From an uncultured virus (IMG/VR IMGVR_UViG_2684623151_000005) (Duplodnaviria > Heunggongvirae > Uroviricota > Caudoviricetes), in the IMG/VR virus record IMGVR_UViG_2684623151_000005: a DNA stretch of 36,762 nucleotides; one strand, written 5' to 3'. Positions 3,062 to 30,410 of the stretch are shown here, piece after piece (the stretch's first letter is position 1; each line of letters opens with the position of its first letter). The notes under the pieces are model-generated. The model did no database searches. It saw nothing but the letters and a program-made list of their open reading frames with translations, and was not told where the DNA came from. Both the position numbers and the translations under genes were made by a program.

Positions 3062-3090
3062 ATATTATCACCTTTGTTGACTTTTGTCAA
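3062..3090 (-). promoter_or_regulatory. Sigma-A-like promoter with TTGAC-N4-GTCAA operator over the -35
   Basis: TTGACTTTTGTCAA at 3077-3090; 17-bp spacer to TAATAT. Confidence 0.65.
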
Positions 3091-3108
3091 ATAAAAATAT
3101 TTAATAAT

Positions 3109-3223
3109 AAAAAAATGAGTATAACTTAAAAGTTATACTCATCTAAAAATTACAAAATTCAAAGGAGAAGTCACAAAACCATGTCAAAAAAAAATTAATA
3201 ATATTTTGACTTGGAAATACTAT
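3109..3223 (-). ncRNA. Candidate sRNA-A (about 115 nt) with an anti-Shine-Dalgarno tract
   Basis: Perfect TTGACA-17-TATAAT promoter, 5' hairpin, CUUCUCCUUU at 3170-3161, and a 13-bp perfect terminator stem (3115-3142) with U-tract. Confidence 0.55.
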
Positions 3224-3229
3224 ACTTAA

Positions 3230-3258
3230 ATTATATTTATTTTTTTGACTTTTGTCAA
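3230..3258 (-). promoter_or_regulatory. Sigma-A promoter with TTGAC-N4-GTCAA operator
   Basis: Operator 3245-3258; TTGACA-17-TATAAT on the minus strand. Confidence 0.75.
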
Positions 3259-3263
3259 TATTT

Positions 3264-26298: not shown

Positions 26299-26392
26299 AT
26301 TAAAAAGAAATAAGAAAATATTTGATATCTACAAATAATTGTATTATTTTATATAATATAAAGAAATGAAATAAATAAAGGAGCTGTTTTGG

Positions 26393-27895
26393 ATGACTGA
26401 TAATGAATTCATAATACTTAAGAAGTATATATCCAAGGTTCTGCAAATTGAAGAGGAAACTATTGATATAAAGTTTTTAAAAAAATTTTTTGAAAGCAAT
26501 ATAGAAAGTGAGGATATAAGGAAAATAAGGTCTGCATATAATAGAACTAAACTGAATTGGCTAAAAAAAATAGATAAATCAGATGAGCTTTATGATTGTG
26601 CATATAAATGGTATAAAAATGATAAGACTTATTTTAAAGATTTTCCTAATTTAGATGTTATCAAGGATTTTTCTAAAAGAAAGGGATTAGAGCATGATAT
26701 TAAAAAATTATACATTGATTTTTTAATTGATTTACCAGATTTAATGGAAGAGATAAATCAAGTTGTTAAAGATGACGGTAAAATGATTAGTAGTGTTATT
26801 ATGAAACAAAATTTAGAAGGAGAAAATTCGGAAAAATTTTTAGGAAATAAAGATATAAACACACAGATGATTTTATTTAACAGCATACCTACAGCTTGTT
26901 CCGATAAGGTTAATTTTAGAATTGAAGATAACGATGGAATTATTGTAAAACAAAAGCTTAATGAAAATGTTTTTGCAGAAGTTAAATCAGATTTAATAAA
27001 AATAAATGATAAGAATAATAAAGTTATGATTGTAGATAAATTTTCTATTGAAAATAGGATTAATGAATATATTCATAAAAATAAAGGTTTAGGTAAGGAT
27101 TCAATAATTACAATTGAAGGAAGAAAAGCTTTATATAATTCATTAAACTTATTAAGTAAAGTCGATAGACAAATTTTAGGATATATAATTTCAAGAGCTG
27201 ATGAGAGTAGCGAAAATTATATTTATTATGGAGAAATAAAATTTAATATAATTGACATAGTAAAGGAAATTTATTCTTCATATTCTTCTAAGCAGTATAA
27301 AAAAGTAGAAGATAGTATAAATAAAATGAGTGAATTAAACATAAAATATAATGGTGAAAATGGAGTTACTAATATAAGTATAATAGATTTCTCTAATATA
27401 GATGGTGATGGAGTTGTTGTAAGATTAGGTTCTGTTCTTAGAGAAGAATTAAGAAATATGAGAACCGTAAGAATATATAATAAGGTTTTAGATAAATTGC
27501 AAGAAGATGTTTCATATATATTAATATTTGCATTACAAGAGAGACGATTAAGAATGGCGATTGAGTGCAATAGAATAGACAATGGAGAGTTTTCACATCT
27601 TGTTAGTGACGAAGAATACAAGATTTATAAGGAAACAGGATATTTGATATTTACAGTAGAATATTTATATTTTACAAATATATTGTATTATGATATGAAA
27701 TACAAAAGGAAAAAAGCTTTCATTAATCTTATATCTAAAGGCTTACAAGAGCTTAAAGAAAATAATATTCTTATAGAAGAATTTTATATAAAGAATGACT
27801 TTATAACTATAAAATTTAAAGCATTTTCTAATAAAGAACAGAAAATAATACAAAATGAAGCAAATCCATTCGCATATGCGTTGTTAGATGAGTAA
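26393..27895 (+). CDS. Putative plasmid replication initiator (Rep_3/RepB-like winged-helix C-terminal half), 500 aa
   Basis: LSKVDRQILGYII...IKFNIIDIVKEIY...YKKVEDSINKM...ISIIDF...VRLG pattern; AAAGGAG RBS; immediately downstream of the array. Confidence 0.65.
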   Translation: MTDNEFIILKKYISKVLQIEEETIDIKFLKKFFESNIESEDIRKIRSAYNRTKLNWLKKIDKSDELYDCAYKWYKNDKTYFKDFPNLDVIKDFSKRKGLEHDIKKLYIDFLIDLPDLMEEINQVVKDDGKMISSVIMKQNLEGENSEKFLGNKDINTQMILFNSIPTACSDKVNFRIEDNDGIIVKQKLNENVFAEVKSDLIKINDKNNKVMIVDKFSIENRINEYIHKNKGLGKDSIITIEGRKALYNSLNLLSKVDRQILGYIISRADESSENYIYYGEIKFNIIDIVKEIYSSYSSKQYKKVEDSINKMSELNIKYNGENGVTNISIIDFSNIDGDGVVVRLGSVLREELRNMRTVRIYNKVLDKLQEDVSYILIFALQERRLRMAIECNRIDNGEFSHLVSDEEYKIYKETGYLIFTVEYLYFTNILYYDMKYKRKKAFINLISKGLQELKENNILIEEFYIKNDFITIKFKAFSNKEQKIIQNEANPFAYALLDE

Positions 27896-28034
27896 ATAAT
27901 TTTTAAATAAGCATTGGTTTTAGATTAATTAATAATACCAATGCTTATTTTTATTATAAATTTGCACCTATGGTTAATATAATAAAAAAAATAATTAGTA
28001 ATTATTTTACAAAGTAGAATAGAGAGGTGTAAAT

Positions 28035-30317
28035 ATGAATAAGAAGTTTATTTGTTTAGGACTTGTAGGAGCTACAATATTACCTATGACAGTACCATTA
28101 ATTCCATATGCTATAAGTTTTAAAGACCATCTTCTTCAATTTGAAAATAAAAAAGAAGATAAAGAGATAAAATCTACTATTGAAAAAAGTGGATATAGCA
28201 AGGAATATAAAGAGCATTTGATAAAAACATTAGAAATTTTAGAAGAGTGCGATAAGATAAATGATTTAAATAAGAAACTTGATTTATTAAATAAAGCTTC
28301 TAATGAATTGTTAATTAAATTAAATGATGAAGATTTATCTCATTATCAAGATAATGACTGTACAAGCTATTTAATGAACTTGTTAATACATAAATCCATG
28401 TCATTTGTTTATGATAATAATTTAGAAATTAAAACTAATGATGATTTAATCTTTAACATATACAAAAAGTTGGTGGATATAAAAAATGTAAACACTTTTA
28501 ACAAGTCTTATATAGATGGAATATATAATACTGTAAAAGAATATCCATGTTTGACTAAAGTTGAAGTTTCAAAGTGGAAAGAATTAAAGGATGAATCTGA
28601 TAAATTTTATGATGAATTAAATAAAGCTAAAAAAGAAGATGTCATAGAAGAAAAAGATAAATCCTCAAAAGAATTGAAGGATGAGATAGACTCTAAAACT
28701 TCAAAAGAAAAAGAGCAGAAAGTAGAGGTTAAAGAGGAAGAGAAATCTGATAAAAGCAAATTAGATTCTAAGGACCAGGAACAAGGTGATACCCCTAAAA
28801 CTTCACAAGAAGCTGAACATAGCAAAACAGAAAATAATATAAACTTAAATGATAATTCTTATATAACTAATAGTATATTTCCTGATGATATAAAGAAGGA
28901 ATTAGTAGTTATAAATGATAATTTAAAGAACTCATTAAGTGATACCAATAAAGACACTATTAAAAAAGCTATGGATAGTTTTTTAAATTTAAGAATTGAA
29001 CATAAAATCTTAGTTAAAGATAAGACAGAACTTGTATATAGACAATTTGATGTTTTGATGGAATGCTTAGATAAATTAAATGTAGATGATAGAAGAGAAT
29101 TGATTGTTGATTTTACAAAAGTAGCAACTAAACTTTACACATCTGAAGAAAATAATAAAGTTGTTTATCTTAAAGCTTTTTTAGGTCTTTTAGACTTAAA
29201 ATATTCAAGTACTGATGAAACTATTAGTTCTGTAATGACAACTGAAGGTGAGAAGATAGATAGCTATAATAAAATGCTAAAAGATGAAGCTTCAAAAAAA
29301 GAAAAAGGAGCTATATATGTAGAAAATGGGAAAATAGATAATAGTAAGTCTGATGATGGAGTTCTTCCAGGATTTAAGCCTTGGAAACCTGACCCTGTTG
29401 AAGAGTTGCCTTTGCCTGAAATTTTTATAACTAATATTGAATATAAAAGTATAGATGGCATTTGTTTCAAGTTTACATACACCAAAGATTTAAAAGGAGA
29501 ATTGGTGAAAACTGAAAAGGAGAAAACAGATGGACTTTATTGTGGCCTTATAGATACACAAATGTCTAAGTCTGAATATCAAGGAAAAGCAAAACAAATG
29601 ACAGCATCTTATTGGTATAGTTTAAATCATGAAGATGTTTCTGAAGCTGATAAGAGTAATCAATACTATTTTTATAAATTGGCTAACTCAATAAGTTATA
29701 TTAATTCAGGAATTAATACAAATAAGGAAGGTAAATTGACTTATGTTCAAGTTAAAAATTTACTTTATCAAATCTCATTAAAATCAGGATATCCATATAT
29801 GGATGACAAAGATAAATTCCTAATAATTGTAGATGGTAAACCTGTAATAATAAAAGAGGATAAAAAAGATTATTCTTTTGATGAAGTTAACAATTTATTA
29901 GGTAAAGCTAATAAAGTAACTATTAAGTTAATGACAAAAGATGAAGCTAAAGAGTTGAATGATAAAAATCTTGATAATATTAAAAATGTAAGAAACTTAA
30001 ATATTAATGGTCAAGATATGGTGTTAGAACCTAAACCTATTATAAATAATAATAAGTTATTGCTTCCATTAGAGACATTGGCAAAAGAATTAAAGATAAA
30101 TATCTCTAAAGATAATGGTAACTATAAGTTTAGTAAAAATAAAGTTGAACTTACAGTACAACCTAATAATAATCAAATAATTTTAAATGAAAACCCAATA
30201 GCTTTAAGTACTAATCCTATTTTGGAAAATGATGTTCTATTTATGGAATCAGAAGATTTTTTAAGTGCTTTTGGATATAGCTTAAAAATAGAAAATGATA
30301 GATTAATTATAAAATAG
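28035..30317 (+). CDS. Secreted protein with C-terminal copper-amine-oxidase N-terminal-like (stalk) domain, 760 aa
   Basis: Signal peptide; INGQDMVLEPKPIINNNKLLLPLETLAKEL...NPILENDVLFM...FLSAFG. Confidence 0.8.
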   Translation: MNKKFICLGLVGATILPMTVPLIPYAISFKDHLLQFENKKEDKEIKSTIEKSGYSKEYKEHLIKTLEILEECDKINDLNKKLDLLNKASNELLIKLNDEDLSHYQDNDCTSYLMNLLIHKSMSFVYDNNLEIKTNDDLIFNIYKKLVDIKNVNTFNKSYIDGIYNTVKEYPCLTKVEVSKWKELKDESDKFYDELNKAKKEDVIEEKDKSSKELKDEIDSKTSKEKEQKVEVKEEEKSDKSKLDSKDQEQGDTPKTSQEAEHSKTENNINLNDNSYITNSIFPDDIKKELVVINDNLKNSLSDTNKDTIKKAMDSFLNLRIEHKILVKDKTELVYRQFDVLMECLDKLNVDDRRELIVDFTKVATKLYTSEENNKVVYLKAFLGLLDLKYSSTDETISSVMTTEGEKIDSYNKMLKDEASKKEKGAIYVENGKIDNSKSDDGVLPGFKPWKPDPVEELPLPEIFITNIEYKSIDGICFKFTYTKDLKGELVKTEKEKTDGLYCGLIDTQMSKSEYQGKAKQMTASYWYSLNHEDVSEADKSNQYYFYKLANSISYINSGINTNKEGKLTYVQVKNLLYQISLKSGYPYMDDKDKFLIIVDGKPVIIKEDKKDYSFDEVNNLLGKANKVTIKLMTKDEAKELNDKNLDNIKNVRNLNINGQDMVLEPKPIINNNKLLLPLETLAKELKINISKDNGNYKFSKNKVELTVQPNNNQIILNENPIALSTNPILENDVLFMESEDFLSAFGYSLKIENDRLIIK

Positions 30318-30380
30318 AGAAGTGTAACAACACTTCTCATTTTTTCATTTTTCTGAAAATTTTAGAAAAGTAGTATAAAG

Positions 30381-30410
30381 TTGACAAAAATCAAAAAATA
30401 AAAATATAAT
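30381..30410 (+). promoter_or_regulatory. Promoter with variant operator TTGACAAAAATCAA
   Basis: TTGACA-18-TATAAT upstream of 30499. Confidence 0.6.

Follow-up and report, generated by a model that had tools for sequence, protein, structure and literature searches.

A palindrome on the -35 box as a putative plasmid-wide operator in a family of giant plasmids

Global plasmid repressors with operators embedded in promoters are an already known kind of control. In the IncP-1 plasmids (RK2/RP4), the Kor and TrbA repressors of the plasmid act on short palindromic operators at the core elements of many strong promoters, with roughly a dozen or fewer operators per operator type on RK2, and this control provides for a tight shut-down and makes an expression burst possible in a new host. 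Other regulators read palindromes of related shape: the FNR/Crp box is TTGAT-N4-ATCAA and the LexA (Cheo) box of the Firmicutes is GAAC-N4-GTTC. The regulator CylR2 of the Enterococcus faecalis cytolysin is described as a dimeric XRE repressor on an inverted repeat in its promoter, which acts together with the membrane protein CylR1 (PMC3709268; bioRxiv 10.64898/2026.09.04.749385). Here we analyze a palindrome, TTGAC-N4-GTCAA, in the uncultured virus record IMGVR_UViG_2684623151_000005 of IMG/VR, a stretch of 36,762 nucleotides that is referred to in its full length as the window. The window is 100% identical to the plasmid pJFP838A of Clostridium perfringens JP838 (NZ_CP013615.1, 404,393 bp, circular) and spans the origin of that record, such that a window position equals the record position + 9344. 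We consider it probable that the palindrome is the operator of a plasmid-encoded dimeric repressor and that it forms part of a composite promoter-operator module.

The palindrome is present in the window in eight exact copies and three copies with one mismatch (Table 1), compared to 0.04 and 0.80 copies, respectively, expected from dinucleotide-preserving shuffles, none of 100 of which matched the observed counts. The first-pass annotation of the window, which was made from the letters alone, had listed the same copies at the same coordinates and had described the motif as element-wide. The scan of the whole replicon that it called for agrees with this description: pJFP838A contains 65 exact sites, or 160 per Mb, and 65 one-mismatch sites, 130 in total, as compared with 0-1 exact and 6-7 one-mismatch sites for reversed-pattern controls. 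Most of the sites are intergenic (58/65 exact, 54/65 one-mismatch, 112/130 overall), and non-coding DNA makes up 15% of the plasmid. Sites with two mismatches were indistinguishable from the background, with 104 calls versus 77-202 in the controls.

The sites are in a fixed register with predicted promoters of the sigma-A type. A -10 hexamer with at most one mismatch is located 16-18 bp from the motif -35 hexamer at 102 of the 130 sites on pJFP838A, and for 77 of these the spacer is 17 bp. The register also emerged from the opposite direction, when promoters were picked without regard to the right half-site and GTCAA was then scored at spacer positions 10-14. An exact GTCAA was found in 24 of the 44 perfect TTGACA-N16-18-TATAAT promoters on the plasmid and a copy with one mismatch in 14 more (38/44), and for promoters with at most one mismatch the count was 88/143, again allowing one mismatch in GTCAA. 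The earlier suggestion that a half-site is the -35 box is thereby placed in a defined register. Furthermore, selection acts on the right half-site separately from the -35: when the right half was scrambled in nine ways and the -35 left unchanged, there were 0 exact and 1-27 one-mismatch calls, compared to 98 exact and 87 one-mismatch orientation-specific calls for the real motif. The A-rich form of the motif is oriented toward the gene that lies downstream, and the strand on which it is found switches from one half of pJFP838A to the other.

The genes behind these promoters are of many kinds. With a crude definition of operons, an oriented motif promoter was found at the start of 105 transcription units, the median distance between -35 and start codon being 70 nt. 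Apart from recA and dnaE, they precede genes for ClpP, FtsH, SepF and LepB, for the single-strand binding protein SSB, RNase H and peptidyl-tRNA hydrolase, as well as an NAD-salvage operon, a Wadjet operon and a Tad-type operon. A perfect motif promoter is also located 253 bp before the beginning of an array of 13 tRNA genes predicted with ARAGORN (+ strand, record positions 374777-377879). The regulon is plasmid-wide and functionally mixed, and the private DNA-metabolism or establishment program proposed in the first-pass annotation is too narrow a description of it. As a separate observation on the tRNA array, the anticodon loop is odd in one of the 13 ARAGORN predictions.

In comparison with three co-resident plasmids and nine unrelated genomes or chromosome-sized records, the motif appears to be specific to the plasmid. 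Together, the co-resident plasmids pJFP838C, D and E comprise 136 kb, in which there are no exact and five one-mismatch sites. In six unrelated genomes of the Clostridia type, the exact sites number 1-6 per 1.1-3.8 Mb, and there are one, two and zero exact sites in an 820-kb replicon of C. butyricum, a 5.5-Mb Bacillus record and a 2.6-Mb Acetoanaerobium record, respectively. The full promoter pattern is found 23 times on pJFP838A versus 0-2 times per genome in 59 other genomes, which represent the families of two genomes labelled "Clostridiaceae" (38 + 21), neither of which is the family of the host. In a scan of genome contigs, the full pattern gave at least 120 scattered single matches, mostly TTGACATATGTCAA; among the matches listed there was no motif-dense locus, and the Streptococcus matches among them are not relatives. 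Most of the background consists of this one fixed 14-mer, and its spacer (N4 = ATAT) is seen in only one of the 65 exact sites on pJFP838A. In unrelated Clostridia, this 14-mer is located in the promoters of DUF134-like, NifX/NifB-like and DUF5320-like genes. These sites look like a separate chromosomal regulon, the putative operator of which is likewise placed on a -35-like TTGACA box.

The plasmid pJFP838A belongs to a family that shares the module. A tblastn search with RecJ identified six large plasmids at 41-47% identity: BTB_502p of Bacillus thuringiensis Bt407, pSC2 of Paenibacillus polymyxa and plasmids of Aneurinibacillus, Brevibacillus halotolerans, Paenibacillus thiaminolyticus and Jeotgalibacillus malaysiensis. 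The shared gene order is recD2 (-), the receiver-domain gene, an S1-domain gene, a gene for a 312-aa protein, a small (-) gene, [tmk], the XRE gene, the YdjM hydrolase gene and recJ, followed at some distance by two small genes and recA. Matching stretches were seen in the flanks of each relative; the locus compared in pSC2 extends from the XRE gene to recA only, and recA is located outside the compared loci of BTB_502p and the Jeotgalibacillus plasmid. Homologs of 105 pJFP838A proteins are present in both BTB_502p and the P. thiaminolyticus plasmid, and about 100 proteins are common to the seven family plasmids, at 25-60% identity. Together, these plasmids make up a syntenic family with sizes of 0.36-0.72 Mb, in which pJFP838A represents the Clostridia and the relatives, from Bacillus, Paenibacillus, Aneurinibacillus, Brevibacillus and Jeotgalibacillus, represent the Bacilli; the hosts span these two classes.

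The numbers of exact sites in the relatives, with those in the controls in parentheses, are 101 (0) in the Jeotgalibacillus plasmid, 18 (1) in BTB_502p, 11 (0) in the Aneurinibacillus plasmid, 8 (0) in pSC2, 7 (0) in the P. thiaminolyticus plasmid and 2 (0) in the Brevibacillus plasmid. If one mismatch is allowed, there are 90 sites in BTB_502p versus 12-21 in the controls, 52 in the P. thiaminolyticus plasmid versus 5-10, and 102 in the first 400 kb of the Jeotgalibacillus plasmid versus 15. The consensus in the relatives is tATTGACTATAGTCAATa, followed by TATAAT at 17 bp, and the center of the palindrome is TATA or AATA, compared to AAAA in pJFP838A. The motif is found at orthologous promoters in at least two plasmids for the recA operon, tmk, recJ, ydjM, the recD2/receiver-gene region, ftsH and dnaE; at the recA operon it is also present in pSC2 and in the Aneurinibacillus and P. 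thiaminolyticus plasmids. In two metagenomic relatives (L193 and L199), an exact palindrome is located at the orthologous promoter before the receiver-domain gene. Since an element of 14-16 bp has been kept at promoters despite a protein identity of only 25-60% and in hosts of two classes, it is probably a functional site with a plasmid-encoded reader. The pattern argues strongly that a factor encoded by the plasmid would read the motif, and the plasmid-encoded binder that had been postulated from the window is made likely by it.

Neither the motif nor the plasmid family was found described in our full-text literature searches. The oral "Inocle" elements, as summarized in their report, are plasmid-like, up to 395 kb in size, occur in the human oral microbiome and encode a sigma factor, DNA polymerase III, RecD and RecJ (PMC12340149). 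Their reported gene content, by which alone we liken them, is reminiscent of that of the pJFP838A family.

The promoter part of the module is an ordinary housekeeping promoter of the sigma-A type, TTGACA-17-TATAAT. The left half-site is the -35 hexamer and the right half-site occupies spacer positions 10-14, with the dyad centered near -28.5. A two-fold symmetric plasmid protein with a helix-turn-helix (HTH) domain would, when bound to the palindrome, exclude sigma region 4 and RNA polymerase. One factor could in this manner gate a large and functionally mixed set of transcription units at near-consensus promoters, and such a combination would come at a low steady-state cost. In a new recipient cell, where the repressor is absent, or upon its inactivation, a synchronous burst of expression would be expected. 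What we observe directly are the sites, their enrichment, their promoter register, their specificity for the plasmid and their conservation in the family; that a protein binds them and represses, which protein this is and what signal would induce expression are what we infer.

The most likely binder is in our opinion P0001, a protein of the XRE type (Table 1), although we put its name forward only tentatively. It matches the Pfam family HTH_3 (E = 4.7e-11) and has full-length orthologs, at 27-32% identity, in the same syntenic position in all seven family plasmids. A full HMMER search yielded 195 matches at E <= 0.001, 31 of them at E <= 1e-10, and 32 near-full-length homologs were aligned; a word-based search with P0001 returned only P0001 itself, and no metagenome locus was found for its closest homolog, P0003. 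The AlphaFold model is of high confidence (pLDDT 95.9), and its HTH domain matches those of the 434 repressor, P22 c2, SinR and C.AhdI (VIA Z 8.6-10.7 over 61-67 residues), which indicates a five-helix XRE, or Cro/C1, fold. Among solved structures, the closest in sequence is the dimeric repressor CylR2, which has the same start of the recognition helix, SRQT. By analogy with such repressors, P0001 would bind a palindromic operator as a dimer. Beyond the HTH, the model shows a confidently folded beta-rich part and a long helical hairpin, which had no match among solved structures in two fold searches that barely probed this part. No S24 peptidase match was obtained in the Pfam scan, and the fold searches matched the HTH part only.

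On pJFP838A, the gene for P0001 is flanked by two exact motif sites. It is followed by the gene for a membrane hydrolase of the YdjM family, and in the relatives there is also a hydrophobic open reading frame (ORF) of 43 aa nearby. That the pairing of an XRE protein and a membrane hydrolase provides a membrane-linked input is speculation. A more far-reaching hypothesis is that a family of giant conjugative plasmids, possibly including the oral Inocle-type elements, wires up to 100 or more consensus promoters per replicon to one operator of 14-16 bp, and that one small XRE repressor together with membrane proteins (the YdjM-family hydrolase and a small hydrophobic peptide) keeps much of a near-autonomous replicon silent, its tRNA array and its genes for ClpP, FtsH, RecA and DnaE included, and releases it in one step, in a manner similar to CylR2/CylR1. 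The operator would then act as a master switch on the scale of the replicon. This hypothesis in its entirety is doubtful.

Several observations admittedly weigh against a plasmid repressor of this kind, or against P0001 in that role. Only 105 of the 393 transcription-unit starts on pJFP838A have a motif promoter, which places many plasmid genes beyond the regulon. Orthologous promoters have the motif in common only to a modest extent (26/53 vs. 16/58, Fisher p = 0.03), and in a metagenomic sublineage (L194, L195, L196 and L198) no intergenic motif site was seen in the 8-21 kb that were examined. The P0001 orthologs of six relatives have promoters with TTGACA and without the GTCAA half, and autoregulation of P0001 is therefore not conserved. 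What links P0001 to the motif is synteny and domain type only. Moreover, the family has a second XRE protein of 359 aa with a C-terminal HTH_3 domain (Table 1), which is an equally ordinary candidate and the gene of which is divergent from a motif promoter in 3/3 plasmids examined, where this promoter drives an operon of small genes and a replication-relaxation gene. The operator logic could thus be the same, with the second XRE protein or an unrecognised core protein as the reader and some other role for P0001, which we regard as unlikely yet worth keeping in mind. The second XRE is conserved in BTB_502p and in the P. thiaminolyticus plasmid, with a well conserved recognition helix (SxSYI), and its HTH is closest in sequence to those of the controller proteins C.BclI and C.AhdI. 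The operators of these controller proteins are GACT-N3-AGTC palindromes, close to the GACTATAGTC core of the relatives. In line with an unrecognised reader, a Pfam scan of 36 conserved proteins without a clear function left 21 with no family match. On the other hand, no direct evidence places the second XRE above P0001, its similarity across the plasmids covers 116-162 residues only, and as it heads the Tad-pilus/relaxase region it could be a local regulator. We would rank P0001 first, the second XRE next and an unrecognised core protein after these.

The motif could also be read positively, by a plasmid activator, a sigma-appropriation factor or the plasmid's own sigma factor. The fixed register with the -10 and the presence of a conserved sigma factor in the family (41-44% identity between plasmids) are in line with such a role, which is nevertheless improbable: the motif promoters are near-consensus for the housekeeping sigma factor and have no need of an activator, and a two-fold symmetric element centered at -28.5 fits neither sigma recognition nor the usual positions of activators. 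The plasmid sigma factor is SigK/SigE-like, with scores far below the NCBIfam cut-offs. SigK/SigE promoters differ from TTGACA/TATAAT, and this sigma factor is unlikely to read either such promoters or a two-fold symmetric site. Quite improbable is a reading by a host regulator, be it a Crp/Fnr-type protein, as the 5-N4-5 geometry and the half-site resemble FNR-type boxes, or a DUF134-type factor, as DUF134-like genes of unrelated Clostridia repeatedly have TTGACATATGTCAA in their upstream regions. The motif accompanies the plasmid family in both host classes, the chromosome-sized Bacillus, Acetoanaerobium and C. butyricum records contain 0-2 sites, the ATAT spacer is a rarity on the plasmid, and the dyad center is at -28.5 rather than -41.5. 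A Crp/Fnr regulator encoded by the plasmids themselves was rejected, with cNMP_binding (PF00027) in 0/5 family plasmids searched and HTH_Crp_2 (PF13545) with no match above the cut-off in these five and no match at all on pJFP838A. Finally, there might be no reader protein, if the palindromes were back-to-back -35 boxes of divergent promoters or copies of a promoter cassette that has spread. A few sites do have a good -10 on both sides, for example at record positions 144165 and 339196, but most have it on one side only. Beyond the palindrome and the -10, the sequence shows AT-richness but no conservation, which speaks against a duplicated cassette, and the element is kept at orthologous promoters although the plasmids share only 25-60% protein identity. 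We hold this last explanation to be very improbable.

Two further products of the conserved region were considered. The receiver-domain protein (12549-14588) was rejected as a binder, with no HTH in any of the eight aligned family members. The Response_reg model matches 6/7 of the relatives scanned, and the protein consists of the receiver domain, a long acidic low-complexity region, a conserved PPRGR motif and a basic amphipathic tail, with no output domain; it may be a membrane-targeted scaffold. In the pJFP838A protein the acidic region is repeat-rich, with a repeated unit of the type ...EELLIIDDDNE.... The 312-aa protein (15490-16428) is the best conserved of the region (65% mean column identity across six plasmids) and has an N-terminal winged-helix-like segment. 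Its Replic_Relax-like match is weak (E = 0.14) and solved structures yielded none; the protein is more likely a relaxase or replication accessory protein.

Table 1. Motif sites, associated candidate small RNAs and candidate reader proteins (window coordinates unless stated otherwise)
Feature	Position	Strand	Description
Motif site, exact	3077..3090	-	TTGACA-17-TAATAT; faces type IV coupling-protein gene (608-2668)
Motif site, exact	3245..3258	-	Perfect TTGACA-17-TATAAT; orphan promoter, next terminator precedes any protein gene
Motif site, exact	12432..12445	-	TTGACA-17-TATATT; 81 nt upstream of recD2 (10133-12364)
Motif site, exact	17085..17098	+	TTGACT-17-TATACT; 61 nt upstream of tmk (17146-17751)
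Motif site, exact	17748..17761	+	Perfect TTGACA-17-TATAAT; 128 nt upstream of XRE regulator gene (17876-18493)
Motif site, exact	18494..18507	+	TTGACA-17-TAATAT; 142 nt upstream of YdjM-family hydrolase gene (18636-19166)
Motif site, exact	19376..19389	+	TTGACT-17-TATAAT; orphan promoter
Motif site, one mismatch (GTCTA)	19517..19530	+	Perfect TTGACA-17-TATAAT; 51 nt upstream of recJ (19568-21271)
Motif site, exact	21329..21342	+	Perfect TTGACA-17-TATAAT; 60 nt upstream of 168-aa / 148-aa / recA operon (21389-23388)
Motif site, one mismatch (ATCAA)	25191..25204		Adjoins start of minus-strand hypothetical-protein gene (23985-25184; RefSeq start 25139)
Motif site, one mismatch (ATCAA)	30381..30394	+	TTGACA-18-TATAAT; 118 nt upstream of 424-aa hypothetical-protein gene (30499-31773)
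Candidate small RNA, ~115 nt	3109..3223	-	From the 3245 promoter to a strong hairpin + T-run (about 3143-3109)
Candidate small RNA, ~105 nt	19411..19515	+	From the 19376 promoter to a hairpin + T-run just before the recJ promoter
P0001, candidate binder, 205-aa XRE (HTH_3) protein	17876..18493	+	HTH at residues 32-86
Second XRE protein, 359 aa	31443..32522 (plasmid record)		C-terminal HTH_3

Within the window, all 11 sites are intergenic or at the end of a gene, as had been noted from the letters. The site at 17748 shares the last 4 nt of tmk, the site at 18494 begins one base past the stop codon of the XRE gene, the site at 12432 is within the divergent region common to recD2 and the receiver-domain gene, and the site at 19376 is within an ORF of 61 aa that has no RefSeq annotation. 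At 8/11 sites, a -10 hexamer with no more than one mismatch is present 17-18 bp away, toward a gene or a terminator-bounded RNA, and at all 11 if two mismatches are allowed. The -10 has one mismatch at 12432 (-) and 17085 (+) and two at 3077 (-) and 18494 (+); on the + strand, the site at 3077 reads TTGACT-17-TTTAAT, with a single -10 mismatch. The four perfect promoters of the first-pass annotation were recovered at 3245 (-), 17748, 19517 and 21329, and between 17000 and 31000 in the window all four 12-of-12 promoter matches as well as the best 11-of-12 match are motif sites. The use of the site at 25191 as a promoter is uncertain because the -10 has two mismatches in either direction. Its neighbor (23985-25184) was at first called a replication gene, a label that is not supported, as the product has no family match.

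Both orphan motif promoters are followed by candidate small RNAs, which may be under the same control as the other motif sites and the ends of which are predicted from the promoters and hairpins. No Rfam family matched in the window, the two candidates included. The leader of the YdjM-family gene (18529-18635) has a terminator-like hairpin of 12 pairs and a T-run at 18567-18594, between the motif promoter and the start codon, which could be an attenuator.

The plasmid itself has been described as a unique megaplasmid with 70% hypothetical genes, 10 tRNAs and no evident virulence genes, according to the passages on it in the sole paper that we found to name it (PMC4747519), which gives CP010994 as the GenBank accession of the JP838 chromosome. 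Its annotation includes a conjugation apparatus (coupling protein, VirB4-like protein, PrgI) and two Tad-type pilus loci, along with replication and repair proteins of its own (DnaE, primase, RecA, RecJ, RecG, RecD2 and a topoisomerase), ClpX/ClpP and FtsH for proteolysis, a sigma factor, SecE/SecG, SepF and LepB, genes for NAD salvage, restriction and defence, and many XRE-type regulators. The dnaE gene (record positions 344997-349528) consists of two annotated ORFs about 660 bp apart, and is a single gene of about 3.7-4.0 kb in each of BTB_502p and the P. thiaminolyticus plasmid; this arrangement suggests an insertion, an intein or intron, or a split gene. Near-identical DNA to window positions 12001-22000 (at least half of the sampled words) was found in eight public runs from four studies, six of which runs are labelled mouse gut metagenome and none of which is recorded as RNA.

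With about 130 near-consensus promoters indeed under one factor, the regulon would be larger than any other plasmid-private regulon known to us, and a clean natural example of an operator fused to a -35 box. It would also explain how plasmids of 0.4-0.7 Mb with their own replication, repair, proteolysis and tRNA genes limit the cost to the host. The motif furthermore provides a simple sequence signature by which the plasmid family can be spotted in genomes and metagenomes.

How does the module compare with the known systems? The LexA regulon has the same geometry of its box and targets that include recA, recJ, recD2 and a YdjM-family gene. The half-site differs, however, and GAAC-N4-GTTC occurs twice on the 404-kb plasmid and not once in the window, in agreement with the first-pass annotation; P0001 gave no S24 peptidase match in the Pfam scan, and the motif regulon reaches far past the repair genes. 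The FNR/Crp box shares the 5-N4-5 palindrome geometry and a near-identical half-site, but the pJFP838A site is centered at about -28.5 on a consensus promoter, whereas the FNR box is centered at -41.5 on promoters without a -35, and a Crp/Fnr-type protein is absent from all five family plasmids searched. With CylR2/CylR1, the likeness lies in the HTH of P0001, for which CylR2 is the nearest solved sequence with the SRQT in common, and in the location of the P0001 gene next to that of a membrane hydrolase. CylR2 differs in having 66 aa and a single promoter pair, compared to the 205 aa and the extra domains of unknown fold in P0001.

The Kor/TrbA control of the IncP-1 plasmids resembles the module in the many operator copies on core elements of promoters, here 130 sites, 112 of them intergenic, and 105 oriented transcription-unit starts. 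There is no relation in sequence except for a trace, a match of the P0001 HTH to TrbA that is below the cut-off (22.7 bits vs. 96), and the hosts of the pJFP838A family are Gram-positive. Unlike in the IncP-1 plasmids, there are about 130 operators on pJFP838A, and the half-site is itself the -35 consensus. What appears to be new is the scale, with some 130 sites on pJFP838A and 101 or more in one of its relatives, the fusion of an operator half-site with the -35 consensus, and the conservation of the module as a hallmark of a family of giant plasmids.

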